Under the pieces are notes generated by a model. That model was not told the origin of the DNA and did no database searches. It worked only from the letters and a program-made list of their open reading frames with translations. From Raillietiella orientalis (lineage: Eukaryota), in assembly GCA_036172245.1 (NCBI GenBank), contig JAYWIR010000004.1, positions 4,216,001-4,280,000 on the forward strand: a DNA stretch of 64,000 bases, given 5' to 3'. The translations under genes and the position numbers were made by a program. Each line of letters opens with the position of its first letter. Position 1 is the first letter of the stretch. Shown here in pieces: positions 2,309-57,445 of the stretch.

Positions 2309-3445
2309 ATGGTTCTTTCTATCTTGGTGTTTCCCTTGCTTTGTGGATTGTTCCATGAGGCGGGTGCAAACAAAGTACTTACCGAAGAGAACGAAAAGCT
2401 GAGTTACTCCTTCTCTAACAAAAGCTCGAAATTCGACGATCCGATCCTCAAATACAACAGCACAAGTAGAAAAAACGAGAATCTTAGTGATTACCAGCCG
2501 TGGTTTCTGCGGAAAGGATACAGCGCATCCAAGGATACAGAAGAACAGAGCTCCCTTTTTCGAGGCAACGGCTTTGCAGATTTCCTTTTATCCTTTCTCA
2601 AAGTGTTAACTGACGAGAAGTTGGTAATGAAGTTCGTAGAGACAGTGACTGCAAGGGCAAGAACGTCAGAGGACGAGACAGATGAAGTTCATCACGCGAA
2701 GATTCAAGGCAATCTACTGGAGCAGTCCAGTTTCTATTCCGACCCATCTTTGAATACCTTCTTCCAAAAACTTTCATTCCATTTCCTGAATTCTCTAGTT
2801 GATCTGTTAATCGAGAAGGAAAATGATGACGGTGGGAAGGGTCGCAGCAACGAAGCTAACCCAGGACTCCCGGATAAAATTTCAGATCCGGAGAGCAGAG
2901 ACGGGGTGCTGAAAGCTTTGAACGAGACTCTGAAAATGCTCGAACTGGTGCAGACTTTCCTTGAAGCAGGGGATCAAAGAAAGAATGATGATCCATCCAT
3001 CATAAATGGTCCTACGGGATCTCTGATAGATGAACTTTTTCCCGCACCGTCAGAGACCAACCCAGAAGTCACTGAGCCTCTGCTCAGGCGTTCAAAAAGG
3101 AAATTAAAACGTGGCATTATTCCTGTTGCCCAACCCATGTTAGGGAGGAGGGGCGTAAACTTTGGGATTTCTTCTCTCTTATCAGGAGTTGAAGAGACAT
3201 TGCTCAGACTTTTCTCATCGTTCGGATCTCTTTCGCAGTCTCTAGGACGGTCGGCTGGTGATTCCTCTTCCTTAGATGAGGGAGGGTTTTCCTTCTCAAG
3301 GAAAATCATGAAAATAATTGACGCTGTGCTGAGAAATGCTATTGTCAGCCTGATTAGCAGGATCATTGAAATGATCATCAGACAGCTCACTTCCTTGAGA
3401 GACACCAAACAAAGTAATAGTACCAGTAATTCACTAGATGGATAG
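2309..3445 (+). CDS. Secreted orphan precursor, 378 aa, single coding exon: signal peptide, acidic N-glycosylated pro-region, furin-type site RRSKRKLKR, C-terminal amphipathic helices
   Basis: Long ATG-to-TAG ORF; N-terminus MVLSILVFPLLCGLFHEAGA; sequons NKS, NST, NLS, NET; RRSKR at 3086-3100; AATAAA ~110 nt after the stop. Confidence 0.8.
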   Translation: MVLSILVFPLLCGLFHEAGANKVLTEENEKLSYSFSNKSSKFDDPILKYNSTSRKNENLSDYQPWFLRKGYSASKDTEEQSSLFRGNGFADFLLSFLKVLTDEKLVMKFVETVTARARTSEDETDEVHHAKIQGNLLEQSSFYSDPSLNTFFQKLSFHFLNSLVDLLIEKENDDGGKGRSNEANPGLPDKISDPESRDGVLKALNETLKMLELVQTFLEAGDQRKNDDPSIINGPTGSLIDELFPAPSETNPEVTEPLLRRSKRKLKRGIIPVAQPMLGRRGVNFGISSLLSGVEETLLRLFSSFGSLSQSLGRSAGDSSSLDEGGFSFSRKIMKIIDAVLRNAIVSLISRIIEMIIRQLTSLRDTKQSNSTSNSLDG

Positions 3446-6400: not shown

Positions 6401-6860
6401 TTTCCTTCCGAACCAGCAGAACCATTCATTCACCAAGCAATCCCGTAAACGATAAATGCTAAGATTTTTATCAGAAGGGAGGTTCTGGCATTCAATTCCG
6501 CATTGCCACACCGGAGCGTCTCGAAGAGTTTGAATATTTGCCATTCAGATGCAAAAACTCCAATGGATTGATTCCATATTATACATAATCCAAACAAGAG
6601 TTTGCTCATTTTGCCCCTCGCCCACTCTCTCTCTCTCTTCTTTTTTTGAAGATTAATTGCAGTTCGTTTTGTTCAAGAAAGCAACTGAAGGGACCAATTT
6701 TCCTCAAAGGAACGCAAAACAGATGTGTTTCAGGAAATCTTCAAATCGGATGCATTAAAAAACGCATAGCTCTTTTCTCAGAACTTTAATGTATTTGGGA
6801 AAATCCTTCTTCTAATACAGTGATCCATCTAACCGAACCACTGGAGAGTTTTGTCGCGCG

Positions 6861-7845
6861 TCTTCTCTTTGACAGAAATCTTCCTTGCAAAGGGCTGAAA
6901 TGTGGAGTCTCGTGGCTACGTATCTTGTTCATCGGCACTCGTCTTCCACATCACCTCCACCGTCTTTTAAGGCTCTCTGCCGGAACCAGGCCCTGTGTTT
7001 CTTGTCGACACAAGTCCTCTGAGGTTCGCCGGCGCCTGGCTGAATGCTGAAGAACTGAGGAAAGACTGGGTAGCGCCCCCGTCCGCAAACCGACGCGGGC
7101 GCCTGGCTCTCCCCTGCGCGAGAAAACGGGGGGCGTCTTCTTGCCGTTTCGTCTTCTTGGACGAAACGGCCTTCCGGAGCCGGAAGCGGCGCGCCGTTTG
7201 CGCCCTGCTTCGCGATGCCGGCGAAAGGAAGGCACGTCCCGCCCGGCTCACCCACCCACCGTCTTTGCTTGCTGGGGAGGCCGTCTTGGATTTCGCCTCG
7301 AGAGGTCGCACGATGCCACTCGGAGAAGGACCGCTTCTCCGTTCCCGTCTCCAAGAGATCGGTTCTCTTCGCGCGTTTCATCCCCAAGCGCAGTGCGACG
7401 TCGCTCGCGTCACGCCGAGCTGCTGGCAGCTCTTCCCGAGATCTCTCCCGAGATCGTGTGCTGGCTATCGCGAAGCAAACCGTGAGAGGCACAGCTTCCC
7501 CCTGGTTCCGGGACAACCGATTCCTCCGTCCGCTCCAAGAGTCGGCTCTCCACCTGTCTTTTTTGACCGCTCTCCACGTTCGTCCCGAAAGTGCGGTCTC
7601 CGCGAGCGTTATCTGAGCGCTGCGGGTGTCCGTCGCTGTTTCTTGCTCGGGGACTCTCCCGGAGATCCTGGCGGCTGTGGGTGCAAGTTGTGCTTGTGAC
7701 GCAATCGGCCATTCCCACGGCACCCTGAACGCCGATCGCACTGGTGACATCTGAGGGCGCGTTCGGAAACTCCGTGATCGAAGGGTGAAGTCTTCAAAAA
7801 CGGAAACTCGAAAACTGAAGTCGCCATTCCCGCTTGCTTTCAAAG
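6861..7845 (+). repeat. Copy 1 of a ~985-bp GC/CpG-rich direct repeat; contains a degenerate LINE ORF1 (RRM plus zinc-knuckle)-like frame at 6995-7699
   Basis: All ORF translations match those at 57515-58429; the only difference I saw is one extra G near the 5' end of copy 2; GQPIPP...SRKCGLRE...RRCFLLGD..GDPGGC resembles Tx1 ORF1 tandem CCHC knuckles with lost ligands. Confidence 0.9.
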
Positions 7846-10800
7846 TTTTTTAAACAAATGGAGCCTATTTTATGGAATGGCTGCAGGACAATTTTTGATT
7901 ACTCATTATTATGTGGTTATTATTGTTTAGACGACAGATGTTCTAAAGAAGGAAGCTGATTGTGTAAGAGAATTTCATGGTTAACATCTCTATACTGTTG
8001 ACCACCGATTTGTAGTTGTGGCCTCTGATCGATGAAATTTCTTCAAAATGAGAGCTTAAGAACTTATCCATTCCAACAAAGAAACATCTTTACGGGAGTG
8101 ACCATTCAACTCGTCAACCAGTCATTGCAAGCATCATCTTCCAAAAGGGTTGCAGGAGTTTCTACAGTCTTGTGGGAGATGCAACTTTAAGGAATCAACT
8201 TCCGAGCATCAGGACATGTTTCTGTGAGCTTGCTAGTGATTCTAAACAGCGTGAAGAGTAAGTTTTCTTGTACTGTCTGACCCCTGTCAACCAGGAAGCG
8301 ACGATGGTCATTAAAGAGTGAGGACACGAGAGAGTAAGATGGTGCTTGTCAAGAATCAGTTGTCCATTGTAGTCACATCTGTAGAAAAGTAAGTCATATC
8401 CACCACAGTCAGCTAAGTCACATCTGTATTCTCCTGCCACTAAAACAGCAAGTTCTTGGGTTTCGCAAGCAATCCTTTGTATCCTAGGAACAGCAGTCGT
8501 GACATATTTAAAGGTGCTACCTTTTTCGAGATGGTTTTGTTCCAGTGAGTTCATGCTAAGCAAATTACCAGAAACCAGAGAAAAGAATGAATCCCTCTCT
8601 TTTTTTTTTGGAATTCTTTACAAATCTTCGAGCTCCGATTACTGAAAAACAGCCAACAGATAAGGTTCGTTCTAGCATTTTCTTAGTTTATCCATTTGAG
8701 GTTCCAGCCGGTCTCTTCCTTAATCATACTGATGGCATAGCATCAACCGAAAAGTGGGCATGTTGTATGCCACTATAGAAAAGCTGGATCTCGTGAACAG
8801 ACTGCATGTTTTCGTATGCCATCATGCGTGTAATCAAATTGCAAATAAATGGAGTTTAGCCGTTGCCATGCATTTTCTAATTCGCTTGTGGACTGCGAGC
8901 TGCATCTTAAATCACAGATCTAAAGGATTCAATTTCCAGAAAATAAAGAACCAAGAGGAATACCGTAGCTGCAGAAAGCATGTCAGCATCTGCGTCTACT
9001 TGCCACCAACTCTTCCATGCAACTGTAGCTTCCACAAATCAAAGTATCATAGTATAAATAAATCGTATTATCATGAAATACACGGAAGTGCCTTTTTTTA
9101 AGAGAAATAATTCCTTTTCATAAAAGTGTTCTTTTTCATTTAGAAATCTTCCATCAGCAAGCAGATTGCTGTGGACCTGCTTATCACATACTTTCAAGTT
9201 TCATTCGAAAGTGCAATAAAATGCCTCCAGCCTTCAGAAAAACCTTTCAGACATCAGACATCTTGTAATCATTCCGTGCTCCAATATCTATTGAGGAATA
9301 GAAGCAATAAGAACAAGAGATTGAGAAAAACTCAGTTTTGACCACTTCCATCACAGAAGGGTGTGATGAGCAGTGAGTAAACATAGATGTAGGTCTGAGA
9401 TTTATTTGAGCATGAGAATGGAGAGGCTTTCACTAATTTAAACGAAGAAACGAAAGTTAGCAGGGGCTACAGAGGTCGGAGTAAACACAATACACAGAAT
9501 AGGGACACTTCTGTGCATCTTTCGATAACTTTGCCTTCTCATTACTTCCAGCTGATTATATGTGGCATTGGTGACTAATCGTTTATTTTGCCATTTCAAC
9601 GCACCATGGTTTCATGGTGCAGCTTGAAATCCCATCCTCAAATTTAAGAAGAGATTGAGCACTGTGGCATCTACTGTGGGATCATGAAAGAGATTGGATA
9701 ATAATAGCCAAATGACTGGTTGTCCTCTCACTTTGCAGGAATTTTTTTCCAACGCATCTGACAGTCGACTTAATGGTACTTTTTTGCTAACAGACGGAGA
9801 GTAGAGCTTGGATGGGCTCCGTTAAAGCATCACGGTTGTTCTTTCTTTGAAATGGAAGACTCCCATTAGCTGCTCAACCTACTTGTGCCTTTTGTGCTGA
9901 ACAAAAGAAGCAGTCACCAGAGATAACGACAAGCATAAGACGAGAAGAACTCAATTCCAGATGTTCCACAGTTCCGTTTCCTTCTGCAGCTTCTTGAGGG
10001 AAGTTTGCCGATACTCCAATCCAAGAACTCCTTTTCATAATTTATCCAACTCGATCCCAGCTCTGATTTTCACAAGCAGCGTGTGGCATTCAGACTTAAT
10101 TCTTCAGCCCTTTGCTCTCCGAGACATTGTCTAAATGCAAACTTGGATACCAAGATGACGCTTTCATAGAGGGAGGAAGGTTTTTAGAAGTTTTGAGCAC
10201 ACGAGTCTTTGGAATTACATGATTATAAACATACTCTTTGTATTTAAGTATTTAATTATCGGGAAAAATACATTAAAATATTTAACATACTAAAGAATCC
10301 AAATATTCATTATAAGAAATGTATTACGAAACTGAGACGTCGGAGAGGAACCACAGTGTTGTAAATTTTGATTTTAGACTCTTGGAGCGGCTGACGGTCA
10401 GTGCTGACTGCTGAAGAAGCAAGAAGCATTCGGTAACGATGCTTAAACAGAAAATCTCCCTCATGACGTCCCTCAACGTTCGATGAGATCAAAACTAATG
10501 GGAGCTTCTGTGATGAACATCAATCATGGACAGATAGCAGAATCCAGTAAGGTACCGGAAAAGGACCGGTTTCAGCACACAAGAATTCTGCGCACGTGTT
10601 TTTGTCTTTCAGGGTTGTAGTTGGCATTCAAGGTCATGAGTCAAACATTATTTCATGGCTGCTACATATGTTATGTATGATTAAAATCCATGATTTCTGT
10701 GCTCCACAGAAGGACAGTCAACACACAACCTGATAGTTAATAATATGGTGTTTAATAAAGTGTGTTTAAGTGGCAGGATGCAGTAACCATAACTGTGCAT

Positions 10801-16227: not shown

Positions 16228-17366
16228 TCAAGGATGTAAAACATTGTTTATGTAGTTTCCAGATAAGATGAGCTTGTCATTTATGTTCTCAAAAGTGGAA
16301 ACCAAGAAGTAAATTTGGAATACGACATAAAGCTTTAGGAGTCTCTTCAACCGCATAAGATGACGAGCAATCGGAGTATTAGTCAGTCCTTTCCTTGCAC
16401 TGGTGAGAAAAAGTAGCAAAGATCGGATGCTGTTTAGTACCGAGAGCACTCGTTGTATCTGACTCCATGCACGGGTCGCTGTTTGAAACTTTTCATACAC
16501 TCCACTCAGCACCCGATATACCATCTGAATCTGAGAGAAACTGCTTTGTAACGAGCGAAACTTTTGGAACAAGTTTCTTTGTGTAGAATCAAGCTGGTTG
16601 CTAGGAGCTCTCTCGTTTTTTCTCAACAGCGAGCGGAAGACTGCGTTTGCTTGTGACTTCCCTCTCATGGAATTAAGCACATGCATTCTGAGAGTATTAA
16701 TGAAAGCTGTTAATCTGTTCTTTAGCATTCGAGAAGTTTCTTTTGCATTCATGGGTGCAGGCATAAATAATCTGGCAAATGGTTTGGAAAAGGAAGGAAA
16801 ATTGGCTTCACCTCTTGGGGTGCTTAGCAAGCGTCGAATTTTTTGCTTTAATGATTTCCTCATTAGCAGAGGATTTAGCAGTAATCGCTTTAAAAGACTG
16901 AAAGTCATTTGTAATGGACGCATTCTGTTGCTCGAAGAACTACGCATTGCCAACGAAAATACCCTCTTGAGAATTTGGAAAACCATTCTTAGCGACGAGC
17001 TGTACACTTCTCTACTAACATTAAATCCAGATTGTATAAAAAAGACGAAAAGCTGAGACAAGAAGTTTCTGATTTCTTTGAAAATATAAACTCCATAAAA
17101 CAAAATGTTCAGCGGGTAACTAATAATGAGATACGTCAGGGAGTACAGACCATTCAACAAGAGACCAATGTATCTAGAAACGACATTGGTTATGTCCCTC
17201 CATAAGGGATTCTCTTCTACATTTGAACCTAAACCAAAAAGAATCACCAGTAGTCGAGAGAGACCGCTATTGGGACCGAACAGAAAAGGTGAAAGTACTT
17301 TCAAAGGAGTTTTAATGATTCGTTTGGGATCTACAAATCTCCGTCTTCTTATAGGCAGCTGCGGCT
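16228..17366 (-). CDS. Terminal coding exon A (378 codons after the junction) of an orphan basic amphipathic protein; starts (x)PQLPIRRRR/FVDP
   Basis: Open frame over 1.1 kb with no usable upstream ATG; strong acceptor ttgcattgtgttctttAG ending at 17367, phase 1; length 1139 = 2+3n to TGA; paralogous to exon B. Confidence 0.75.
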
Positions 17367-18234
17367 CTAAAGAACACAATGCAAATACATAGTAATTAGA
17401 AACTACATTTCTTGAATTTTTGAACTGATTTAAGAATAAAATACTTCAACAGTGATATTGCGGCTTGAAAGGCTTTTCAGTGAAAACTACCAAACAAATA
17501 TTCAAAAGCAGCGCCCCAAACAGATGACTCAAGGAGCCATCATTTTCAGAAGCAATGAAAAGCTCCTTGGAAACAGCAATATCTAGCACGTTTTACTTTG
17601 GGTATTCACAAAAAGTAGTGCACAAATCGGGAAGTTCGTGCATTCTCATCAAAATAGACCCACAGAGTTTTGTTTTGAAGAGCAGCTTCAAACGTTCCAA
17701 ATGTCAAGATGAAGGTTTGGTTTCCAGCTTTTTATTAAGATAATGAAAAGCTGTATGTGTTTGTACTTTGGAATTCGTGAGCACTCGGAGCTCTTCGGAA
17801 CGAATGAGACCGCTCACAGTGGCAGTTTTGTCACAGACTCATCATGGCGCCTAAAACATGGTATTGTGGATTTTCAACTTTCTGTGTCTTATCGGTGGCC
17901 ACCGATAATTTGATACAGTATTACAGATTTCAGGAAGGATGATTTTTCGTTTTCGTAATGAGACTGATCTCGCTTCAGTCTAGGATTTTTAAAGAAGGAA
18001 ATGAAAGAATCATCATTAGGCGCTTCAGAATAACTCTTCGAATAGTGGAGGTTTTCAAAACAAACAGTTTCATGCTTAGAAAATGCATTTTTATTTAGGT
18101 GGGAGTTTATTTTCATTGGTTTGGTTGCCACCTGAAATGAAGAGGGCTCTGGAAACATCTCCCAATAGCTCATGGAAAATTCTGATCATCAGACGTAATC
18201 TTCTTAAGGGAAAATCTCTAGGCATCTGGATGAA

Positions 18235-18240
18235 TTTATT
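18235..18240 (-). promoter_or_regulatory. Candidate polyadenylation signal for exon 18554-20334
   Basis: AATAAA on the minus strand ~315 nt past the stop. Confidence 0.4.
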
Positions 18241-18553
18241 TTTTCTGAGATTAAGTGATCACTATCTGTGTGCACAGATGTTGATCCCACATTTATAAAT
18301 GATCACCGGCTTTCTTATTTCAAGATCCGTAAAACTGTTTCCGAACCAGATCGACAGCTCGACTTAAGCTGAATTATGTCTGTCCACTCACTGAGATGAG
18401 GGAGGAGATTTTTCATAGTGCGTATTTGTTCCAGAAGCCACCGAAACTTTGAACTCATTGAATGAACATTTACATCTTCAGTTCTTATCCATCCTGCTTA
18501 TTAGAAAGCCTAAGAAACTCTCAAACAAAAATCTCCGCTTCAGATAGAATCCT

Positions 18554-20334
18554 CTACGTTCGAGTAGCGTTCGTTAATCGTTTCAAGATTCTCATCAGTG
18601 TGCCATAAACACTGTTCAATATAGCCTGGCTCAAATCTTTGGCTTGCGAATGCTTAACAAGTGTTTTCACAATAGAAGCCAGTGTCTGCATTAGGATCTT
18701 TGTGAAGAAAATAATGGGTTCAAATAGAGTCACAAAAGTTCTGTCCAATGAACTTTCTTTCTTTACTATGGAGACTTTACTTGGAGGAATTATTTCCCTC
18801 AGCATCTCTAGGAAGTAACGCGATAAAAGAAGTTTCTCGTTGTCAGGTTGCGTGAAAGGTAGCGATCTAAACAGAGTCTCATTATCTCTGATTGACTCCA
18901 ATGCAGCTATCGGCCGCATCCGTACATCTTTGTGAGTTCCGATTCTGCAATTTGATGAAAGCTCTCTCCTTGAGCCATTCATATCTGATGCTTTCGGATT
19001 GCCAAGATGGTTCAGAAATCTGTTGAAAGAACACGATGGGATTTCATCTTTGAAGGAATCATCTAAGCGGATAGTGGAACTGTTAACAAGTAAGGGTCGT
19101 TTTTCTTCTTCAGCAGTTGCCGATCCGTTGATGTTTTGAGAGTTTTGAAACACTTTATTTGTCGCAGCTGTTCTTTTCCTTCTCATTTGTTCCCTTTGCA
19201 CTAGGGGAAGTTTCCGTACCTCCTTAGTTATGGAGTCTGTTTCGCTCTTCCTTCTCTTGTTACCGAGCGGTTCTTTGGAATAATCCTCTTTGAATAATGT
19301 GCTGGATTTGTTAAGGTACTCCTCAAGCTGTTCCAGAACTCCATTTAGTATGACTGCTCCTGCTGAAGTGACCAACAGGTTATTTACAGCGGATGGCAAG
19401 GCTACTTCCGCCTTGTTTCCCTGCTGCCTGTCCAGAGCACCCATCTTTCGATAAGGTGGTGGCGAGGCCTGCCTGTTCCGCTTCGCCAAGAGGAGGAGGG
19501 GGGTGACACCTGTTGAGCTAATGGGAAACCCGCTTTCGTTCTTCGGTGCGTCTTTGCCCATGGGTCTTAGGGGGACACTGGGAGAAGATGGGTGCTTTTT
19601 AAGGCCAAGATGAGTAGAGGCCAGGAATGCAATCGCCAAAGGGGCAGACATTAACAAAATGGTTCGAAGATTCGCTTTACTTGGAGATGAGCTTCTACCA
19701 CCTGATTTGTGATCTGGGGATCCAAACAGTCTCAATAATGCCGCTTTGTTCCTCAGGGAGTGAGTTCTACTTGAAAATCTGTTCGACTTGGCTCTGTTTC
19801 TCAAACGTCTGAAGATGCTCGACTCTATGAGGTGAGGGATGGAAAATATCCTGTGAACGAGAGAAAAAAGCATTCGCGCTTGTGGGATGTCGACCCTGGA
19901 GTGCAACATTCCGGCGATCCATCTTGACAGTTTGATTTGGAGCCTGACAAAGGATCGAATCTCACGAAAAGCGAAGAGGGTGAGATTTCCCGAATCTCTT
20001 ATGTGATTCAGTAGAAAATTCAGGATGATACTCAGAATGGTGTTGGAGACTTGAACTGCAGTGTTTACGAATGTGAAGAGAGTGTTCACTCCGCTGGCAA
20101 TAAGCTCGGCAGCTCCAAACAAAAACACATACAGGTATCTGCCGATTATTCCTATCAGGGACAAGAGTGGGCTCTGAGGTATGAGTCCAGATCTCAGGTT
20201 GGAAAAATACAGAAGTGCAGTCAGATTTGGGGAGTTAGTGCTTCTTCTTAATATAAAGGCAATCACATCAAGGATCTTGAGCTTACTGAATCTTTTCTTT
20301 CTCTTTTTTCCTTTTCTAGCCTCTTGAACATCGT
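18554..20334 (-). CDS. Terminal coding exon B (592 codons after the junction) of an orphan basic amphipathic protein; starts (x)DVQEARKGKKRKKR/FSKL
   Basis: The frame extends upstream of the tracked GTG to acceptor tgcctgtttgtttttaAG ending at 20335, phase 1, with an in-frame stop overlapping it; length 1781 = 2+3n; shares motifs with exon A. Confidence 0.75.
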
Positions 20335-20788
20335 CTTAAAAACAAACAGGCACGGTTCAGTAAATTCTGGAAACAGACCTTACGGTGCGTTTAAAATCAT
20401 TTGTTCAGATAGCAAGAACCCTTCTGTTATTAAGACAATATCCAGCCTTTGTTAAAGTTCAACGTATATCGTTGTGATAGTCATTATGGCGCTGCAACGT
20501 CTTCAAAACGTACTGAGCATCTGTGTTCCTGAAAGAGGCCTCCTAACATCCGCAAGCAAACCATGTTTTTAAGGTCTAATAAGGGATTAAAGGTTTGGCA
20601 TGACAGTGGAGACAAGGAACCGGACTGGATAAAGGCTTTCTTAACTACAGATGTTGTGACGTAGCCTTCCAACACATTTCTTACATAATATCTGTGCGGC
20701 CCGTACCAATCAAGTCTGTGTTTTCAAGATGGGTGACACCTGATAATTACCCGATAACTCAGACTGCAAGAGTCGCTCCTCAACTCAC

Positions 20789-20899
20789 CCGGAAAAGTTG
20801 CCGCGCGCACGCAGAATCTGTACGCAAAATCCTCAGCACTTTTGGAAACATTTTTTCCATGTAAGGGAGTTTTCGATCCCTTAGTACTGGACGCAATGC
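20789..20899 (-). CDS. Candidate symmetric phase 1-1 internal exon (111 bp, GIASSTKGSKTPLHGKNVSKSAEDFAYRFCVRAATFP)
   Basis: Acceptor gctgttgatctcAG, consensus donor G|GTGAGT, open frame, phase-compatible with exons A and B. Confidence 0.3.
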
Positions 20900-23800
20900 C
20901 TGAGATCAACAGCGAATGATGATTCAAAAATGTTGAGCATGAGCCATTAGGTGCTTGTATTTTTCAGATCATTCGAACCCTGATGACCATGACATAGACT
21001 AGACTGGCACAAAAGATAGATAAAGCGGCAGCCTTCACTCTGATGAGAACCTCTTTTCTATACAGCGCTACCACTTGGTTACTTGGCCAAGACGCGTTGG
21101 AAAGTGACACCCAAGTTGCCTATGGAAGAAGCATCATTTATTTCCCAATCCACGTACCTTTCTTGATCTTTGATGCTTGTGTTTGAGCACTGTGAACACA
21201 AAGTGGACTTGGAATAGAGAATTTTAAAAAAATCAATTGAGTGAATGCAAGACTTTTCGGCGGATGGTTTCCCTGCACTCAAAAAAGAGCAACAGAAGAA
21301 GAATGAGAAGCTGCTTGACTGAGAAGGCATGTTGCAACAGATCTCTCTTCTCCAGCTTAACTTCTTCTAATGGTGCTCTCAAGAAACCGTCGCAATTAGC
21401 TGTTTCTCAACAACGAACCCTGGTATCATGCTCGATTCATCAATTCCCTCTAACAGGTCACATTTATCAATGTCTTCAGTTTCTGTGGGTTTTCGAGGAG
21501 CCAGCCCTCTGTGAAGCAGCGTTGGAGATTTTGAGAGAAAACGTAAGGAAGGCTACATTTAGTGGATTGTATAGACTAAAAGTAAAGGCAATCCTTTCCT
21601 AAAGGCCTTGCATACGGAACAGTTTGAGGGCTTCCGGTGCTCTTCATTTGAATCATCGGTAGCATGTTAGCTATGTCACTTTTATCTTTGATCAGTGAGA
21701 ATTTACGCACTTGTTGTATACACGGTACTAATATATGTGTGATGAGTACTTCCCCCAAACTCCCATACTTGCATGTGCATGCAGACAGTTGTGTACAAAT
21801 GCATTTTAGTTTCTCTCATCCTATACACGAATATTTAGAGATATGCGCAGAAGCATATACCTGTGTGTTTGGGGAAGGCCAACAAGTCGATCACATCATG
21901 CTGTGATAGGTTTGATTTCCAGCATAACAAGAAGTAGCCCTAATGAAATGGGGGCATGCATTTCCAGTCTTACAAAACAATTCTAAAGTCAGTATTAAAA
22001 TTATGGTAAACGAATTGAAATGGTAAACGTCTTTCGTATATATAAAATTATGCAAAAAGACCTTAATTAAAAGTAGATATCAGTATGCATTATAAACATA
22101 AATATATTAAACACGCTTGTGTTATGCATGGCATTCCATACAATGTTTATAATTGTATAATTTGTCCTAGTTCAAGGAATTTCTTGACCATGAGCATTTG
22201 AGCCCCCCAATACTGTCAAAACCTAAAGCGAATGAGGAAGAAAACCTTGTAGTGTATCAGCAGACACTTGCTGGTGAAGAAGACATTCGCATGGATCCAC
22301 GGTGAGTGACAGATCAGTTGCAAAACCAGAGAAATGTGTGGACTAGCTGCTGATCCTATGGAGGATGCTTCCTGAAGTATTCTCAAAAAAAAAAAACAGA
22401 AAAACACAGACACACAGAAAAACATGTGAAAACACGAAAACCAGAAACAAGAGATTCTGTACAGCGACTCAAAAATTCTCACTGCCCTGAATGCACACGA
22501 GAGCGTGCAAGACTCAAAAGTAGCACGTCCATTCCTTTAAAGAAAGACGTGTGCACCTCTGCAGACAGCAAACCGGATGCTGGTTTTAGAAGTGCTCGTT
22601 ATGATATGGCATAGCGAGCGAGTGCATCAGTCACTTTGCTGTTGTAAGCTCAGTTTATCATTTGTATCTTGATCTCGGTGTCCAGCTCTGGAAATAGCAT
22701 TTCCAAAGGACTCCGTTTACGTGCACTTCTAAAACCAGCGCTCGGTTCGTTGTCATTGGGGAGTTAGAATGCCCATCAAGACGCTCCTTGAACCTAGGAC
22801 GAACGTGCACGTGCAAAGGAGGCGACGTGCACGTGCACGTCCAGGATGAGATTTTCAAAGAGTATACGAACAGAGAGCATTGGATGAGCTCACAAGTGAT
22901 GGTGACGGATTATGGTCGTCTATGCGAAAAGAAAAGAAAATTGGGCACTCTCACATGCATCTGCTAAAGAGTCAAAACTTTGAATCTGTAAATCGTGTTG
23001 CATTGATATGAAGTCTGAAATGAAAAGAAGCTTCGCTGAGAGATGTTGGCGTCAGATGCAAGGATGAGCTCACAACAGCATTCAAGATCAAGTGGGTTTG
23101 TTCGAAGCCAGACGACTTTTCTTCTTTCATCTCCAATTTCCCCCAAATGCATCCTTTTCCTATCAACACAGATGAAATCGAAAATTGAATTCTGTGGTCC
23201 TCTGTTCATCCTTTGGATCCCAAGCAAAATGTTCACCACAATATCAGCACAATTATGAACGAATGTCTTCATCATCTTTGCCTGTATGTCTTCTTATCCA
23301 GTAGCATTTCGATGCACACTTTCGATTTCTGCTATCTGTCCCCGCATCTTACATAGTTTCCCTTTTGTTTCCCTCATGCATACTGTTCCTTCCGATACTG
23401 AAGGATGGATGAACGTGCACTGAGGACGTGAGCAATGCTCTCGCAGGAGTCCTGTAAGAAACGTTACATGCCCATGATGTGAAACCACTTAATGGGAACC
23501 TGGAGTTATGTACTTGAGGATACTGCAGTGCTTGCAGACCATGCTGAATTCACTACTTGCAATTTCGGTGAAACTGTCCTTTCCGTAAAATTTCTAACGA
23601 CCTTCTCTTGATTTTGAAAATACGATAAAACTTCTTTTATGTTCTTAGTCATATCCATTTTTTTTGCCGGTCATTGTGAAGTGATCTTGTCATGTCTCAG
23701 TTTGTCAGCTCCTTGAATTCCTGTAACATCAAAAGCTAAGGATTCTTTTTCCCTAGGAATGCAAAAGATGATTTTAAAAAATAGATACATAAACAACACT

Positions 23801-24339
23801 TTGGCTTGTTATCCTTAATCAGAAGGTTCCTTTTCGCCATCAGCTTTCTCCAGTATCACCGTGTTGGTCATGTATTTTATTTCTTGCGGACTGCCAACGA
23901 ACCAACTAGTCAGCTGACCTATTCAACTGGAATTTTTATCACTAAAAAAGGGAATTGAATCTTCACTCGGTGTGTTGCAGTTGTGGGCAGGCGTGTGTCC
24001 TCAGTGTGTTTCCGTATACATCTTTGCAAGCTTTGGTTTCTGTCACCAAAATGCAATCTCCACCATCTTTTCAGAGAATGCCGCGTGAGATAATTGATTA
24101 TTTCAGTATGGGGATGCATGGTATTGCAGGACTCAGAAATCGTCTAGTGTCAGTTCCAATAATTGGATTTTCTGGATTCTAAAGGCAGCGTTCCTTAGAA
24201 AAATTCTGCTTGCGAACCACGTGAACGACTCATTTCTCTTTCCATCAGGCTTGAGATAGGCTACTAAATTTCAACTCATGGCACTTGCTATATCACCAGC
24301 AATGCTCCTTTCAATGAGACATGCTTTCCCAAAGATTAA

Positions 24340-24702
24340 TTCTGAGCATTAGTCGATACCAGACCGCCATCATACGATCTATTCCATATGATTCCCAGAC
24401 ATTTCTGCGGAGTCCAGGCGACACGTATCTAAGTTACAGAATCGTGCTGAAAACATTTCAGTAACGACGGAGACATCTTGCTGCGTTCTTCTGAACCCGG
24501 CTGGCCTTTGCTGAGAGTGCAACCACAAGGTTGAGACCAAAGAATTAGGGATCCAGCGTGAGCAGGGAAGCATCAGCGATCGCGTTATGGTTAGTAAGAG
24601 ATTACTGCGAGGGGGAAACAGCTGAGCTTTTACCGGGGAAAGAAAATTGCCTGAAAAGTCAGCAAATGCGAGGAACCTGCTAAGATGGGAACCGGAAGTC
24701 AC
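24340..24702 (-). mobile_element. Decayed LINE RT fragment
   Basis: NLLLTITRSLM...QRPAGFRR...CRLDSAE pattern resembles ISLLN.DYK / Q.GF..GR / LD.EKAFD. Confidence 0.3.
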
Positions 24703-25199
24703 GTTTCGCTAGCTTGTCGAGAAATCATGTAGATTTAGTAGGTTTTCCTGTGTTCATTTTTAGCTTTTTCGACAGAAGCAAACTCTAAAAACGGCAAGTT
24801 ATGACAGAACTAAATATTTCTTAATAGCGGATTCCTGCAAATAGAATTCCACATTAATGAGGAATTGTACAGGCTGGATGAAGAGCGGAAAAGTCCAAAA
24901 TCCAAAACGCCATCCTAAACACGTCATAACTTCCATGGCTGCAGGTTTAAAGTGCAGCCTCCTTTCACTAGAGGGAAGAGTGTGGTCGTACAGTGGGGAA
25001 TATTGAAAGCTTTCATTGCACCATTCTTTGCTTCTTTCAACTGCTCCGTTGTGACCTTCTGCGAGAAGGATCTGTTCCAGAGGTGTATTTGGAGGCTTAT
25101 TGGAAGGTTTTGAAGGATTCCTCACTTGAAAGGTGTTCAGTAGCTTCCGTTTGTTATTAATGAAATCAGCAGCCAAACTTTTTCGATTACACGAGTAAT

Positions 25200-25720
25200 T
25201 CGGACGTGAAATCATGTGCTGCCTTGAAACTGAACTACAAAAACCGATTCCCGATGGAAGATTCGTTTTCTCATCTCTTCCTCTTCGCGTCAGCAGTGTC
25301 TCGTTTCTTTCAAATGAGTACTTTGACAAACTCGAACACGCGTGGGAGGAAACCACCATCATGAACGCACTGTGCGAGCGTTCCGAGATCGCCTGCTTAT
25401 CAGAAAACACACAAGAAATCATCCATCTTTTCTCTTTCCGAGTACGTCGGCGGTACACCACAGTCTCATTGACACGTAGCATCGCACTGGCTCGTTAGAG
25501 GGGAGCTGAAAGAAACGGACCTACTTCGAAATTTGACAGAGTAAGGGGTAGTGGGAAGGTTTTGCGCACAAAGGAACGCACAGCAAAATATTCTTGTTTC
25601 TCTTGTATCACTAGAAAAAGAAGACGTCCTGAGAAACCACTTGAAGTACTTGGAACGCTGCCAAATATGGTCAGAATATCCTGAATCGCGTACGCTTTTC
25701 CTTCGGACCTGAAACAACAT
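25200..25720 (+). mobile_element. Decayed LINE ORF2 linker between endonuclease and RT
   Basis: SVSFLSNEYFDKLEHAWEE and later RTKERTAKYSCF...RKRR resemble the N.SLL...W and GEK.TKYFF segments of L1/Tx1 ORF2. Confidence 0.4.
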
Positions 25721-28700
25721 GGCGAAGTGTTTTTTTGTTCACGAATTTTCAATCACCATTCGAGGAAACGCTCAAGGCTTCGTGGGAAAAGCCGAAGCAT
25801 CCTCCGCCTCTTTCTGAAGCGTTAACAACGTTTTTTGCTTTGCTCTCGCACGTCCTCTCTATGGGCAGGCCGCCACACCAGTTCACCTCATCTCATAGGC
25901 AACAGTTTCTTGCAATCTGCTCTTTCTTAGTGAAAATACTCTTCCTACAAAGATATTTGGCTAGAAGAGAGTGATGGAAAGCATTCCAGCTGAACCGAGA
26001 GCAAATCTCTAAGAGCCACTCGTGTGCGAAGTGTGGGTCGCGACCCTCTGTGGGGGTTGCAATTGGAATCCTGGTAAGTAACGTAAGAATAAAGCAAGTA
26101 ACATACTCTGGAGATTTTGTCTCGGCTGCCCTTAGCTGATTATATTATACACGCGTGTGTGATGTATGAAAACTATAAACAGCAACTTTTAAAACAAAAG
26201 GTTTTAGCACGATGGACTTAACATGAGAAAACCCGCATAGATTATGCATATGAAAAGGGGGGTTTGCAGCGTCGACCTTGTCCAGTGGACTGCAAATCGT
26301 CTTTAACATTGCTAATAAGTATTGCGAATTCTCAATCACACGCAAGCAAATTTTTTTTTCCAGATATAATACCTGGTTTGACAAGTAAATTTAATAAGTA
26401 CTCGAACCAACTTCAGATTAGGATAATGGCTGGTTTGTTTAATAATAGGGTTGGTTTGGCATTATATAACCGTGAGGAATCACCAAAGAATCTGCTTGTG
26501 CACAGTGAGAGCGAACCCAGAAGTTCTGTCTGGTCTTCCCAGTGCGATAAACACTGGTAGTTTTTTTTTTTTTTTACTGTGCTCGGTGCGATCTTCGTTG
26601 AAAACTATGATTAGGAAGGACAAAGTCAAGAAGGGTGCATGGATCAACAGGTAGTGTCTTGCAACAGAATAGCTCTCAAGCAACAAGTCATCACGTAGGA
26701 ATCAACACGTTACGAATGCTACGAAGGGCAGCAGAGAGGACCCCTTAAGGAAAGTACTTGAAAAAATCGCCTCCATCTGGATAGTTATTTAGAAGTGGGA
26801 TTACTTAGTGCGGTGACGAGCTTCGGTCCACTACTGGAAGCAGTGTATGGATGTACGTGGAACGAAACAAGACTGCAAGCAGTGCCATCAGAATCATCAA
26901 ATCGATCGGATTTTTTTCCCAAGAGGATCGCTGCTGGTTCCTCGTTGGAAGGACCGGTTTTTGACGAAAGATACGTTTCCGCAGGTCGGTGACCCAAGTC
27001 CGGAATGAAATCTCATAGATGAAATCAGTTCGTAAAGAGTTCTCGGAGCTGCAGGAGAGGAATAAGTGAATCCGATCCAACTGATGCGATGGATGGGCGC
27101 AATACAGTTGGGAGGTTCATATAGGAAAAAGTGTTGTTCGGAATCGAGGAACACTGTTTGCTTCCCAAGAAGAGGTAAGATCCATCTCATGGTATTCTGT
27201 CTTTATTTATTGGGCATGAAAAGAAGAAGAAGAAAAAAAAAAAGAAACATGGAGCAGTTGTTAGTTCCCAGGAAACTGGAAAAAACCACGACCAGAAATG
27301 ACTTTTGAATGTCGTGAACGAATACTTCCGAGTTTCTGGTTCGTGAGAAAATCATGTGGAGGAACGCAATTTCTTTTACTCTGTCAGATTTCCTGGCACG
27401 TCCCTCAGAAGAAAGTGGAAAAGCCATCTGGAGGTGTTTTCGGTCCCTTGAAACATAGCAAAGGCAGTAGGCCAGGAAACAAAGACTCATCCCAAACAAA
27501 ACGTCAGCGGCGAATTACATCTTTGATGTCACCCACAGGTCGCTTAATGAGGGATTGTTTGCATCAGTTCTTAAAGAGGCAGGCACTCGGCAGAAGAACC
27601 TTATTCTACCTCCATAATGTATCGGAGGCGATCTTGTAAAGGTCGCGCGCTCGGCCATGCTTATGAATCAGAAGAAATGCTTGACGTTTGATCCTTGGGA
27701 GGAGCGTCCATTTCATTTCTAATCGCCACAAAAGGGATCTCGCTGTAGGAAGTCCGTTTACCAAATCAATGCGTTCGAACACTTAAACGAGATGAATTCT
27801 GATACCTAAGGATGATCAAAAACGCCTCAGCTCCCGGAGCAAAATTGCGTCTTCAGAAAATGGGATATAAATGTGGAAAATTAGAGCAACATGGAGGTGC
27901 GTTTCCATGGACTTCTGGAGCAAAAATAGGGATGCAAAGGGACTGATTTGCGGTCACTGACCTTGTCCCAGGAGAACTTTCGTCCTGTTATGGAAGGATA
28001 GGAAATCCGTGGTTGAGTTTGCATCAGAAAAAGTGAAGTTAATTATCAGTGAGGAGGAAAAAAGCAATTGTGCTTCAAGAATTTCATTCTACAAGAACAT
28101 CCTGTCGTATGTGCTTACAGAGTTTAACTGAGATTTTCTAGATCCTTCATGTGTGAAATGGAATTCGCTGTGCTGTTGAGGAGAAAATGTTGTTGTCTTA
28201 AGTCTAAAATTCATCCTCATAGTTCATACAATGCCGGGAATTATTCTAATTCGAATCTCATCAATCCCTCGTATGGCATTGAATTTTCCTACACCTCTGT
28301 CCCATTTGCAATCCTATATTTTTCAGCGAGAATATTAACTCAATATGCTATGATATTTGTAACAAAAGAAATGCAGGAGATTGCATTGCATATTTTTAGG
28401 GAAAGTTGAGATAAAAAAGTCTGGAAACCGCTTCCCTGAACATGATCTTTGCTGTTCCACATAATAACCGGATAGAAAAAGAGTAATAGTGAAGTATTAT
28501 TACTATGAGTGAAACTACAAATAGAAATACTGGAAATTTATAGCCGAGAGGATTTCATTTCTCATTTTTTATTCTTCCAATCATGAAAGAATGCAGTGTT
28601 AATGAGATGCTAATAATCTCAATTATGTCTTTGACACTGTAGGCGTCCGTGCTGCCAAAGATTACTGTATTCTGGAATTCATAACAATGTATTTATAACT

Positions 28701-29562
28701 TTTGTATACAACATAAATAATGGGCTAAAATGATGAGTTTTCACCTCTTGTTCTTTATACAAAAAGCATTCTATTGGGAAGATTGATGAAAGATGAATTT
28801 ACAAGTTTCAAGAGCCACCGAAAGACAATAAGAAAGTGCACAAAGACAGCAGCGTTCTAGTCTGAATTAATGGTAATTTCTAACAACGAAGTTCATTTTT
28901 CACAACTAAATCAGATACATGACTGTACAGTACACGCTGGATGGCGAAGAGTAGAGTCACCATGCAGCACAACACCATGGAAGGTTAGCAAAAAGAAAGA
29001 TAGTTGTTTAGGGTCCATCAGAATTTTCAAGATTATAAATCAATTTAAGCATATCATGGCAAATATCTTTCTCAACTGTGCTATAGATATTGATAAATGC
29101 CATTCATCTTATGATGACATGGATAATAATGGAGGGATCCTCGATCAAAAGCCTGGAGAAAAGCTAATTTAATCTTTGGCCAGGATTCACGAGAAGGATG
29201 CACAATAAAAAAAATGCAATAATAAAAGATGCCGGTCGTATCTTTCTATGTTTTCACGAGTCGAAGTTTTGGCCCAATAGGGCGATAGCAATCTTTTGTT
29301 CTCCGGAAATAAAATTAAAACAATCTATTACAGAATAGTGATTTACGCCACTAAGAATGAATGTATCAATTAGTGATTTTCCGAAAACTCCTCAAAAGCT
29401 ACTCCATACAAAATTTTAGTTCACCTTTCGGTGAGAAGACGAAAGAAAGGAGATAACAGGAGATTTGCTTCTCGCAAGCTGATAAAAAATGCATTCCCTA
29501 CAGTCCATGCATAATTATTGTGTCTTTTAAGACTTTCGTGCTCTGTTTTCTTTCAAGGGCAA

Positions 29563-29605
29563 CAGAATTGCTAAACTCTTTGAACATTCGAGTTCGAATG
29601 ATTGA
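29563..29605. repeat. 43-bp direct repeat, partner at 31986-32028
   Basis: 39/43 identical by manual alignment; all four differences are transitions. Confidence 0.85.
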
Positions 29606-29752
29606 CAAGAGCACGAACTGTAGTGGCAAATTTTGGAGATGGATGGCTCCTGGTTTTCATGAGAAAGATGGGGAGTATGCGTACAGAACCACATATCAAG
29701 GGGTCATCACGGGTACGAAGTGCCTTCCGTGAAGGTTTCATCCGCGTCCTAC
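29571..29752 (-). CDS. Candidate short phase-1 terminal exon (GRTRMKPSRKALRTR...NHSNSNVQRV*)
   Basis: Acceptor ctgtatgtatctttAG, length 182 = 2+3n, basic N-terminus; compatible with the donor at 31625. Confidence 0.25.
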
Positions 29753-31625
29753 CTAAAGATACATACAGTTGCAAGAAGGACAATGGATCAACAAGAAATC
29801 ATTTCCTAAATGTCATAAATATCAGGTTCTTGTGATACCGGTGACGGAAAATCATTTCTCAATAATTTCTGGGTCATTTTTGAGAGGTTGCTTTTTCTTA
29901 GCAAGCATTAGAAAAGTGTTCAAAGAGTTCCGGTGGGTCCCGAATAGTAATCGAGAACGAGTGATTTCATGTCACTTATTCTTGGTTACGAAGACGACCA
30001 CGAGTTTCAAAATAAAGGTGCTCTTCAGGAATGTGGATTGAAACCCCAATTAGCAAGTTACAGGCTGCCTCGAGAGAATGAAAATCGCGTTAATGTCTAT
30101 GATATTGCAGCGTTTTTTTTCTAATCACTGAGTTGATTTTATTATGCTAATGATATTAAGCAAATGAAACACTTTGAAAACGAAAACCTAAACCATAGTT
30201 TCCAAGGAATGATTCTGGTCGACTCCGTACTCTGTAAGATTCAATCAGTGGTCACGGCAGGGCAATTTCGTGCACACTTCGCATAGTCTTCCACGTCATG
30301 AGTTCCCGGAGTTGGGAGAGAAAAGCATTTGCTTCTTGCTAGAACTGATTTTCATCTCGAATTTCCGTTCTGATATGCCATTCTTATGAGATCGGCAGAA
30401 AGGCCGACTTGGAAACCGAACCCTGCTGTATTTTCTTAGGAACGGAAAGATATGCATGCTCAGTGAGCAATTTCCAGAAAAGAAATCGTTTATTTCTTAT
30501 TTTTTGTCCATCGATTCACGATGCAATTATCTCAATCTTTACCGCGATTCCAAAGCCGCTGATTTGTGATAAATCATTTTTTATGGAACTGCCCAAAGTT
30601 TTCTGAATGCTATAATAACGAGAGCATTTAAGATAAGAATCCAACTGCCCTTCTCTGCATCTTGGATCTCGGAAAGTACTGAAAAGGGCATCTTTAGAAT
30701 CCATTCATCTCCTTCCTGTTCGCATCAGTCACCAGAGAAAAAGATTTCGAGTTTCTTCCCAATGCTTTTTTTTTTCGAGAGCAAGCAATCCTTTAGAACA
30801 TTGCTTCGATGATACGGTACAACACTGACCAAGAGCGCGTGTAATCCAAGAGCACTTACGAGAAGGAAAGTGAACGAATTGCCACAGTCACCACCAATCC
30901 TTAGGCAGGATGCATCGATAGATTGGATCTCTCGAAGAAGATTCCCAGCCCGCAAATCCATTCACACAACACTGGAATCTTCAACCTATGTAAGGGATGG
31001 TTTTGTTTGGTGTTACGTGTCCAAGTTGGCCTCGAAACACGAAAAGGACTGGGAGCACTGAGCTTCTGTTTCGGTAAGAGAGGTCATCCAGAAGGTAACG
31101 TGAGTTTCCGTTCCATTTCAAAGCCCTCGAAATTTTCCGACTTTTTCCTCATCGTGGTACACACGAGAACGCCTGTGGATCTATTCCAGGTATTTTATCT
31201 GCCAAGTGCGCTGAGGGTACGAAAGGCAAAGCAAAGCAATCAGTTTGCTGGCCCTGATTTCTATTAATTATGCATTTTATCCATTGCTGCTCTTCACATT
31301 ACTGATTTTTTTGAAATGCATAATTTACGCTGTTGTCAGTTTTTCCCTACGAGCAGTTTTTCACAACGAACTTATTTTGCACTGTTCTTTCACATGTTTG
31401 ATATCTTAGCAGAAGCAGCGTCTTCCTGTTTTTGTTTACATCAGACGGAGCGTATGAACAGAAACTACGAATCGCAAAGGTTTTGCTTAGTTTTCGGCGA
31501 CCGTTTCACGACAGTCGCTCGAGAACGAATTATGAGTGCCGCATCGGAAGCTGAGGAGATGCTTTCAGGAGCGTTCCCAGACGCGTGCTTGCATTCAGAA
31601 AATAAATTCTGCCGAAGGAACTTAC

Positions 31626-31887
31626 CGATGGGGTTTTCCGTTGCTTTCGCATTTTCTTGAGAATTGATAGGTGATTCGAATTCTATTGGAAGCTCTGCCA
31701 AAGTGGTGTTTATATTGCAAGAAGCTTCCATACGAATGTTCCCATAGCCATCCAGAGAAAGGCAGTTCGTGATGGAACTTAGATCGGTTTCTGTGCTTCC
31801 CGCAGCTCCGTGGATGCACGCAAGAAGGGCTGCTACCAGAAATGGAATGGCAAACTTGTCATTGAGTGAAAAGAATGCAAATCTCAT
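31626..31887 (-). CDS. First coding exon with signal peptide and acidic two-Cys pro-segment (87 codons + 1 nt)
   Basis: ATG at 31887; FAIPFLVAALLACIHGAAG hydrophobic core with small-residue cleavage site; consensus donor G|GTAAGT at 31625, phase 1. Confidence 0.6.
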
Positions 31888-38279: not shown

Positions 38280-38880
38280 TGTGGGGCCGCTCCTCATTCT
38301 CTTCTCCGAAGGGAAACCGAAAAGTATCCGCTCCTGAATTTCTTCTCCGGAGCGAACCCGCAAGGGAACCGCTCCTGTTTACTCCTCTGAAGAGACTCCC
38401 GAAGGGACGCTTCCAAGTTTCTTTCGATGGGCGCTTTTCTAAGGGAGGGACGCGGCTCTTACACTCTGGAAAGACAATCCCCCGATGGAGGTATCAACCG
38501 TGGTACGAGATGGAGGGTCTCCCCAAAGGAGGGGGAGAGCTCCATTTTCACAAGTGGAAGGAATCAAGGAGCTGGAAGGGAACTGGCTCCTTGATTCCTG
38601 GAAGGACCCTGAGGGGTCAACTTCCAATCCCAGCCCAGTCAACGAGAGCATCCGGTTTCCGGCTTCCACCAAAGCATGGCCTACCATGGTCATCCTGCAG
38701 GCGGGACTCGCAAACCCACGACGCGGATCCTTCCCCGGGTAAGATTTGAACCGCAAAGCGCTCGGTACGGTGCACGGAGACCGTAGCCAAGCGGCCTCCA
38801 GCGCGGACACATCGGTCAGGACCACACCTTGGTTCCTGGAAGCGAGGTGCTCAGGACATTCAGGTATGGAAACTGACACT
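38280..38880 (+). mobile_element. Decayed LINE ORF1-like fragment
   Basis: GC-rich island; GRFQVSF (RRM-like), then two eroded knuckles LQRGHIGQDH and CSGHSGME. Confidence 0.4.
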
Positions 38881-57300: not shown

Positions 57301-57445
57301 ATGAATTGAACGAAGTATGCCAAACTATTGAAATCTGGTTTCAGCGCCGATGGGACCCATTCGATTTCCTTGTAGGTGTCTGTGTAAAAAGCAATCTACG
57401 AAAGGTCCGCTGACTATGAAGTTCACTGAATAAGTCTCACCCGCA

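Follow-up and report, generated by a model that had tools for sequence, protein, structure and literature searches.

Two long open reading frames (ORFs), close together on the minus strand of a 64,000-nucleotide stretch of Raillietiella orientalis DNA—the window, as we shall call the whole of it—raise a simple question: where do the proteins they encode begin? ORF A spans 17445-16228, and ORF B opens at 20335, with a TAA immediately before it. At 405 and 593 codons, respectively, both exceed the longest ORF found in 100 local shuffles (391 codons), and in both the first in-frame methionine lies approximately 150 codons in, which bears out the claim of a first-pass annotation that neither has a signal-peptide start. 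Being longer than chance allows, and startless, each therefore needs a coding exon upstream. The same annotation proposed that one exon, encoding a secretion leader, serves both. This is also the account that we favor, at a probability of roughly 0.3 for the explanation as a whole.

Two terminal exons without a start

ORF A can be entered in phase 1 at its best acceptor, gtgttctttAG/AG (slashes mark exon boundaries in DNA and cleavage points in protein), which begins a terminal coding exon at 17366. Exon A (17366-16228, minus strand, like all features described here) comprises 378 full codons plus a split junction codon, and closes with a stop at 16230-16228. The sole usable upstream acceptor for ORF B is tgtttgtttttaAG/AC (tttttaAG/AC at the junction itself), and exon B (20334-18554) continues from there for 593 codons to a TAG at 18556-18554. 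Because the frame of exon B opens exactly at its own AG, phase 1 is forced. Both acceptors had been described as good ones in phase 1; the phase stands for both, but the acceptor of B is weak, with A at position –3 (AAG).

Soon after each predicted junction comes a basic cluster followed by phenylalanine, as previously noted: RRRR-F in A (17349-17335), the Phe being residue 11 past the junction, and RKKR-F in B (20302-20288), the Phe being residue 16. These clusters may be furin/kexin-type convertase sites. Each exon has, besides its own stop, its own AATAAA, 142 nt on in A (16086-16081) and 314 nt on in B (18240-18235), and here, too, the earlier description was accurate; against the 41-43 occurrences of the hexamer per strand in the window, each is weakly significant (chance p ~0.09 and ~0.19, respectively). 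AATAAA also lies less than 400 nt past the stop of g2309 and of g39371, two complete single-exon genes for secreted proteins. The products of both exons would be very basic (net charge +45 for A, +49 for B). B has two transmembrane-like stretches past the basic cluster, at residues 55-79 and 221-245, and the corresponding hydrophobic segments of A are weaker. AlphaFold2, run on A without an alignment, returned an all-helical model of pLDDT 52.9, unusable for fold search.

A and B resemble each other, if faintly. BLASTP pairs them at E = 0.02, and their N-terminal 200 and 220 aa, respectively, align colinearly from the basic-Phe motif, with R-X-K/R-R as the anchor (RRRR/F in A, RKKR/F in B). 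In 1000 full shuffles the Smith-Waterman score of 68 was never reached, and in 1000 block shuffles it was reached 7-12 times (p ~0.01); their flanking DNA has no detectable similarity. Judged by this alignment, they are probably very diverged paralogues, copies of one terminal exon. That one or both startless frames might instead be decaying gene fragments, or that they are spliced from B to A as a single polyprotein through a donor internal to B, we consider very improbable. Sites for such a splice are present (for example, GAG/GTACGG at 19220, and an acceptor at 17358, both phase 0), but B has its own stop and AATAAA, and that both frames have stayed open, over 405 and 593 codons, despite divergence almost past recognition, argues for selection on each.

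Kinship to other proteins was sought widely. No homologue was found for exon A by word search, for exon B among 1.84 billion representatives, or for g39371; the ESM Atlas search with B and g39371 found nothing; and of the 164 pattern matches of exon B to metagenome contigs, none was confirmed. Pfam searches with the leader, both exons and both single-exon genes (g2309 and g39371) yielded nothing better than E = 0.09. Searched against PDB sequences, B reached E = 0.17 at best and A reached E = 5.5e-4 with no passing stretch, a match that we read as compositional because the target is a Leu-rich protein. Exact look-ups of four proteins, the first with a query that began one codon before the Met, returned no match.

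The window as a whole was similarly silent. Of its 121 ORFs that are 90 aa or longer, Pfam matched none of the 97 scanned together—the other 24 being five scanned separately, seven overlapping the latter in other frames, 11 from a GC-rich repeat (overlapping frames or second copies), and 38443-38739—and it matched none of 150 of the 252 ORFs of 62-89 aa, the other 102 lying beyond 42.3 kb. Neither genome contigs nor metagenome contigs contained an exact match to a 36-mer of this GC-rich repeat. Other genetic codes lengthened no ORF meaningfully, and shared promoter k-mers, and the motif ATCTTTGTGTTTCAG, occur at chance level.

The leader exon

Far upstream of B lies a more conventional beginning. 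The leader exon (31887-31626) starts with ATG at 31887 and encodes a peptide whose N-terminus, read directly from the sequence, is MRFAFFSLNDKFAIPFLVAALLACIHGAAGS: a signal peptide of canonical form, ~30 aa long, followed by an acidic piece of ~57 aa. At 262 nt the exon must end in phase 1, and it does so at ...CCCATCG/GTAAGT, directly past 31626—a perfect GTAAGT, and the consensus phase-1 donor that the first-pass annotation reported. There are just four GTRAGT hexamers on the minus strand between 33000 and 16000, this donor among them, and it is preceded by an open frame of 89 codons. TTTCAG precedes the leader ATG by 9 nt; in three of four genes, TTCAG is found no more than 32 nt before the ATG, versus a background of 6%. 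A scan of the minus strand from 34000 to 17367 for ATG, signal peptide and donor together produced two candidates, the leader and one internal to B; outside ORF B, no other ATG exon of that interval combines a hydrophobic core with a donor scoring 2 bits or more.

When the leader, the 111-nt exon described below and flanking DNA were used to search for paralogues, the sole result was a 43-nt island at 32028-31986, which begins the approach to the leader ATG at a distance of ~100 nt, with a second copy at 29605-29563 (90.7% identity). The island contains the palindrome CATTCGAAC.TGAATG.

Two other ways of starting A and B were tried and rejected. One is an AUG supplied by a flatworm-type spliced leader: the acceptor of B used in phase 0 meets a stop after 23 codons. 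The other is the signal-peptide-like exon 21330-21158, which ends in phase 2; both downstream acceptors then meet stops. As for trans-splicing of gene starts in general, the TTCAG motifs just described are what it might leave; searches of the window found no SL RNA, no member of any other Rfam family and no tRNA, and no in-frame ATG follows the acceptor of A or of B.

Predicted joins of the leader to A and B

Both terminal exons lie downstream of the leader on the same strand, and the predicted joins are open: leader plus A gives 466 aa and leader plus B gives 680 aa, the lengths that had been calculated before. A 111-nt internal exon candidate can be inserted as well, at 20899-20789 (gatctcAG/GC ... 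CCGG/GTGAGT), 454 nt upstream of B, in which case leader, 111-nt exon and B give 717 aa. Donors (31626, 20789) and acceptors (20899, 20334, 17366) are all phase 1. The 111-nt candidate has no in-frame ATG; its donor is the best in the region, at 6.9 bits on a generic weight matrix that, as for all splice scores here, was not built for this organism, and it is the only internal candidate of phase 1 at both ends on the minus strand between 31626 and 20335, where the plus-strand control gave none. The introns implied from the leader are long—10.7 kb to 20899, 11.3 kb to B and 14.3 kb to A—next to other candidate introns within the window of 49, 83 and 454 nt. Seven AATAAA hexamers, the number to be expected from the background rate, fall inside the would-be intron.

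The joined precursors had also been said to share the layout of the single-exon genes. That likeness proves to be loose: there is no significant similarity of A or B to g2309, z scores against g39371 are 2.5-3.3, and the pro-piece shared by the joined forms would be ~60 aa, versus ~250 aa. No significant similarity to g2309 or g39371 spans the predicted junction (p 0.07-0.42). That the leader joins B we would put at even odds; that A and B share it is a more tentative proposition.

The leader has a possible rival partner nearer at hand. At 31210, 415 nt past the leader donor, is a strong acceptor, ccctcAG/CG, which scores 6.1 on the same generic matrix, versus 1.1 for B and 1.6 for A. Joined to it in phase 1, the leader would run for 20 codons to a TGA (31210-31149) and yield a small secreted protein of 107 aa; unspliced, its frame continues for 53 codons past the donor and yields 140 aa, a length with p ~0.1 at the stop-codon frequency of the window. 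The locus may thus consist of at least three independent units, in which the leader belongs to one of these small proteins, and A and B are very basic, non-secreted proteins of membranes or organelles with short 5′ exons that go undetected or look like chance. RRRR and RKKR would then be the positive cytosolic flank of a first hydrophobic helix, or a targeting or NLS-like signal—a reading with which the transmembrane-like segments of B, the weaker ones of A, and the net charges of both agree. We hold it to be about as probable as the shared leader. Short first exons are easily overlooked, and candidates are present; moreover, the long intron proposed between leader and B contains ORF C (25482-24799; 227 aa, own ATG, no signal peptide), whose ATG has TTTCAG 23 nt before it. 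No homologue of ORF C was found, and no AATAAA occurs within 900 nt of its stop. Against independent units stand the two separate sets of unseen exons that they require, the length of the 31210 exon (20 codons is what chance would give), and the poverty of the leader read-through: no AATAAA within 900 nt, the nearest being 971 nt off, and a codon score that is poorer in the reading frame than outside it, by a log-odds test that is weak and has too little power for calling short exons. Nor does B have any first-exon candidate above chance save the leader.

The 111-nt exon could also be real and the leader irrelevant. Its donor, the strongest in the region, would suit a gene whose alternative last exons A and B share upstream exons, 20899-20789 included, and whose true first exon is 23003-22955 or one that we have not seen; duplication of what seems to be the terminal exon alone would suit it equally. 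The named candidate ends at a phase-1 GTGAGA donor and has TTCAG 11 nt before its ATG, but encodes no signal peptide. It occurs at chance level, however, and the leader would be left partnerless; we regard this arrangement as improbable.

Does A share what lies upstream of B?

The shared-leader account makes a further demand, that A, too, draw upon the exons upstream of B. Between the stop of B and the acceptor of A are 1,187 nt, the ~1.2-kb gap in which the earlier search had found no signal-peptide exon, and we find no signal-peptide start in it either. Neither the leader nor the 111-nt exon has a detectable copy there, so that the duplication was apparently limited to the last exon, leaving A dependent on the exons upstream of B.

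A might nonetheless be a separate gene, with leader, optionally the 111-nt exon, and B making up a gene whose first intron is long, and A downstream beginning at a small first exon of its own that encodes no signal peptide. The example to hand is 18458-18392: ATG, MSSKFRWLLEQIRTMKNLLPHL (MSSKFRW...), and a TCA/GTGAGT donor in phase 1, which fits the best acceptor of A across an intron of 1,025 nt. Every argument that connects the leader with B applies here unchanged. But ATG...GT candidates of this phase-1 kind are found at the rate expected by chance (8.3 expected and 11 seen in a 15.6-kb stretch, with donors of at least 1 bit); this one sits between the stop of B and the AATAAA of B, within the presumed 3′ untranslated region of B, with no TTCAG-type acceptor signature before its ATG; and of the two paralogues one would be secreted and the other not. 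We think a separate A unlikely.

How one leader might serve two proteins

If A and B do share the leader, the locus might work as follows. A and B would go back to one terminal coding exon and have diverged greatly since it was copied; neither could be translated by itself. Most likely one transcription unit uses them as alternative last exons, and its upstream coding exons lie beyond B: the leader (31887-31626), with the 111-nt exon (20899-20789) as an option. Transcripts that end at the poly(A) site of B would give leader (plus 111 nt) plus B. Were the weak AAG acceptor of B skipped, and transcription to read through, leader (plus 111 nt) plus A would result, instead; a weak acceptor at the proximal of two last exons is what a skippable exon might be expected to have. 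Either precursor would enter the endoplasmic reticulum and lose its signal peptide, and a furin/kexin-type convertase would then cut at RRRR/F or RKKR/F, just past the splice junction. Released would be a very basic, helical, partly hydrophobic protein with phenylalanine as its first residue.

Tentatively, then, one signal-peptide exon would act here as a common secretion module, spliced across introns of more than 10 kb to mutually exclusive, fast-diverging exons that each encode a whole protein of ~380-590 aa and each open with a convertase site; from a single promoter and leader would come several unrelated-looking, very basic, effector-like proteins. Further payload exons may exist elsewhere in the genome. 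Should the splice prove real, A and B would be overlooked by gene finders or given wrong starts, and these two large orphans would have to be counted among secreted proteins that a convertase processes, both from a single locus; the case would also illustrate how secreted proteins can diversify by duplicating a last exon and retaining one leader. Otherwise, the region is a run of lineage-specific genes of the ordinary sort, whose first exons have escaped notice.

Comparison with known systems

Economies of this kind have been met before. In CALCA, the calcitonin/CGRP gene, common 5′ exons encode the signal peptide and pro-piece, and are joined to mutually exclusive downstream peptide exons, one of them with its own poly(A) site, from which the peptides are released at basic sites. 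CALCA is a conserved vertebrate gene, and its exon choice is tissue-specific and experimentally proven. The arrangement proposed here is alike in having a shared 5′ signal-peptide exon and exclusive terminal exons; CALCA differs in that its products are small hormones and its exon choice is proven. Two-exon genes for secreted or exported proteins, such as the PEXEL genes of Plasmodium, carry the signal sequence on exon 1 and a cleavage motif a few codons into exon 2, much as our candidate junction does, but they join one exon 1 to one exon 2 across a short intron, and their RxLxE/Q/D motif is cut by an aspartic protease, whereas the site here is polybasic.

Another precedent is SPAG11/EP2, the mammalian epididymal gene for beta-defensin-like proteins. 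Its exon 1 supplies a signal peptide and an identical N-terminal piece common to the isoforms, a furin-like RVKR is present, and alternative splicing provides dissimilar C-terminal peptides (PMC1524968). SPAG11 products are 65-89 aa long and their splicing is documented by cDNA; the candidate payloads here are of 378 and 593 aa and would lie beyond introns of more than 10 kb. Insect serpin genes splice one secreted body to alternative last exons born by exon duplication (PMC12758981). Those exons are short, clearly homologous and swap a loop only, whereas here the whole mature protein would be swapped. The logic of a shared leader is thus already documented for small peptides, SPAG11 and CALCA among them, and what this locus would add is scale and lineage, rather than principle.

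Two long frames without a start

The window is eukaryotic DNA (GC 42%, TpA o/e strongly depleted at 0.56, CpG o/e not depleted at 0.86), and searches of it for tRNA genes and Rfam families returned no match. Long ORFs are few, and only four stand clearly above 100 local shuffles, in which the longest ORF was 391 codons: g2309 (2309–3445, plus strand), g39371 (41296–39368, minus strand), and exons A (17366–16228) and B (20334–18554), both on the minus strand. According to the first-pass annotation, A and B are possibly mutually exclusive last exons spliced to a single upstream signal-peptide exon, the leader, which is then removed at a basic site. The features it described in all three exons are present where it placed them, and the first ~150 codons of ORFs A and B contain no in-frame Met.

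ORF B opens at 20335, immediately 3' of a TAA, and so has a sole upstream acceptor, tttttaAG/AC (exon start 20334, phase 1; slashes mark exon borders). ORF A opens at 17445, and the best of its 11 AG sites is ttctttAG/AG, at 17366, likewise in phase 1. Both acceptors had been called good. The phase stands for both, but B's AAG is weak (splice scores here are rough because they derive from generic weight matrices), and this counts against a shared leader. A basic cluster followed by Phe does lie just beyond each junction, RRRR-F 11 residues on in A and RKKR-F 16 residues on in B, where cleavage would release the leader; an equally possible role for the cluster is that of the positively charged side of an initial membrane helix, and in both proteins hydrophobic segments follow it, those of B including Kyte-Doolittle TM-like stretches at residues 55–79 and 221–245. 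Each stop is followed by AATAAA, as described (after 314 nt in B and 142 nt in A), although this motif occurs 41–43 times per strand, and its nearness to the stops has a p of only ~0.19 (B) and ~0.09 (A).

The two products are strongly basic (net charge +45 for A, +49 for B) and rich in Leu, Ser, Arg and Phe. Pfam found no domain in A, B, g2309, g39371 or ORF C (25482–24799, minus strand) at E ≤ 0.01, and searches of collections with A, B, ORF C and g39371 found no homologue; comparison of g2309 comprised an exact look-up and the Pfam scan. An AlphaFold2 model of A, built with no alignment, is all-helical, and its pLDDT of 52.9 is too low to support a search by fold.

A and B as probable duplicates

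BLASTP aligns A with B at E = 0.02 only. A local alignment of A 1–200 with B 1–220, colinear from RRRRF/RKKRF onward, scores 68, a value reached in 0 of 1000 full shuffles and in 7–12 of 1000 shuffles within blocks of 10–40 residues. By this alignment, an ancient duplication seems to have given rise to A and B. The distance from B's stop to A's acceptor is 1,187 nt, matching the annotated ~1.2 kb, and duplication seems to have been limited to the terminal exon, since near A there is no second copy of the flanking DNA, the leader, or the candidate 111-nt exon that precedes B. That the frames have stayed open despite such divergence, for 405 codons in A and 593 in B, is an argument for translation of both; in that case, A would most simply borrow B's upstream exons.

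The leader and a candidate exon before B

The leader (31887–31626, minus strand) runs from an ATG at 31887, with the start MRFAFFSLNDKFAIPFLVAALLACIHGAAGS..., to ...CCCATCG/GTAAGT after 31626, and its length of 262 nt places the donor in phase 1. Between 34000 and 17367 on the minus strand, a scan that required an ATG, hydrophobic core and donor yielded only two candidates, the leader and one within ORF B; GTRAGT hexamers number only four between 33000 and 16000 on that strand (31626, 30860, 20789 and 18392). Joined by script from their coordinates, leader and A give an open frame of 466 aa, and leader and B one of 680 aa, the lengths previously annotated.

Between leader and B, a distance of 11.3 kb, the sole phase 1-1 internal-exon candidate is 20899–20789 (gatctcAG/GC...CCGG/GTGAGT), 111 nt long, open, and lacking an in-frame ATG; the plus strand of the same interval, as control, has none. 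Leader, this exon and B together form an open frame of 717 aa. Slightly upstream, 21330–21158 (minus strand) has a signal-peptide-like start, MPSQSSSFSFFFCCSFLSAG..., and extends to a good donor, AAG/GTACGT, in phase 2, incompatible with use as a start for either the 111-nt exon or B. A 43-nt island occurs twice on the minus strand (32028–31986 and 29605–29563, 90.7% identical) and contains the palindrome CATTCGAAC(T/C)TGAATG. The leader ATG begins ~100 nt downstream of one copy, which is directly followed by a possible donor, GTCC/GTAAAG; the island might represent a duplicated 5'UTR exon or promoter element.

Is the leader shared?

Viewed as a whole, the locus has one 5' part with no visible 3' partner and two 3' parts with no start. 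The three share a strand, follow one another in the order required, and are all in phase 1. A single splice model accounts for this at once, with the caveat that short exons are easily missed. Several observations count against it. The leader ORF continues past its own donor to 140 aa, and 415 nt beyond that donor, at 31210, is a much stronger acceptor, ccctcAG/CG, joining to which adds 20 codons before a stop. The proposed introns would be 10.7–14.3 kb long; other visible candidates are ~49 nt (g2309 5'UTR), 83 nt (leader 5'UTR) and 454 nt (before B). Within the would-be intron, in the same orientation, is ORF C (ATG 25482, 227 aa). It is likely but not certainly real, since ORFs of at least 231 codons arose in 14 of 100 shuffles. 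ORF C has no signal peptide, Pfam match or homologue and probably constitutes a lineage-specific gene of its own between leader and B.

Separate first exons are one alternative. Both A (18458–18392, TCA/GTGAGT) and B (23003–22955) have ATG-bearing, phase-1 candidates that lack a signal peptide, which weighs against the shared leader; the frequency of candidates of this type is what chance predicts, 3 seen against 2.9 ± 1.7 expected with donors of at least 3 bits, and 11 against 8.3 with donors of at least 1 bit. Also unfavorable to sharing, the contiguous secreted genes show no similarity that extends across the predicted junction (p 0.07–0.42), and the resemblance of A and B to g2309 is not significant, and to g39371 marginal (z 2.5–3.3). 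On sequence grounds, we give the leader roughly an even chance of joining B, directly or via the 111-nt exon; that A and B have upstream exons in common, whichever these are, appears a little less probable than that; and the shared-leader model, which combines the two, we would place at about 0.3.

Other elements

The two contiguous genes, g2309 and g39371, are single-exon orphans with clear signal peptides, polybasic sites (RRSKRKLKR and RSRR, respectively), and, by eye, several N-X-S/T sequons in the N-terminal half, eight of them in the first 250 aa of g39371, which is strongly hydrophobic at residues 334–392 and 517–549. TTCAG with a pyrimidine tract lies at most 32 nt upstream of the ATG in three of the four ATG-bearing genes, g2309 (2296–2308, plus strand), the leader (31900–31888, minus) and ORF C (25510–25483, minus), compared with 6% of ATGs window-wide. 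The pattern suggests that this organism regularly has introns in its 5'UTRs or uses spliced-leader trans-splicing. A 34-codon, ATG-started open stretch at 30961–30860 (minus strand) ends in a phase 0 donor, CTC/GTAAGT, that would suit an acceptor at 25392 within ORF C. Besides the 43-nt island, the only repeat in the window is a GC-rich direct repeat of 996 nt (6857–7851 and 57442–58437, 99.7% identical, 50.6 kb apart). Several of its frames are open on each strand, it has no Pfam match, and it probably represents either a dispersed repeat or a solo terminal repeat.

Comparison with known systems

The logic of one leader with alternative terminal exons is established, and systems with which this locus can be compared include CALCA and the two-exon PEXEL genes. 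In SPAG11, exon 1 encodes a common signal peptide and N-terminal piece, followed by a furin-like RVKR motif, and alternative splicing attaches dissimilar C-terminal peptides (PMC1524968); in insect serpins, duplicated terminal exons are swapped (PMC12758981). Payload size and intron length would set the present locus apart.
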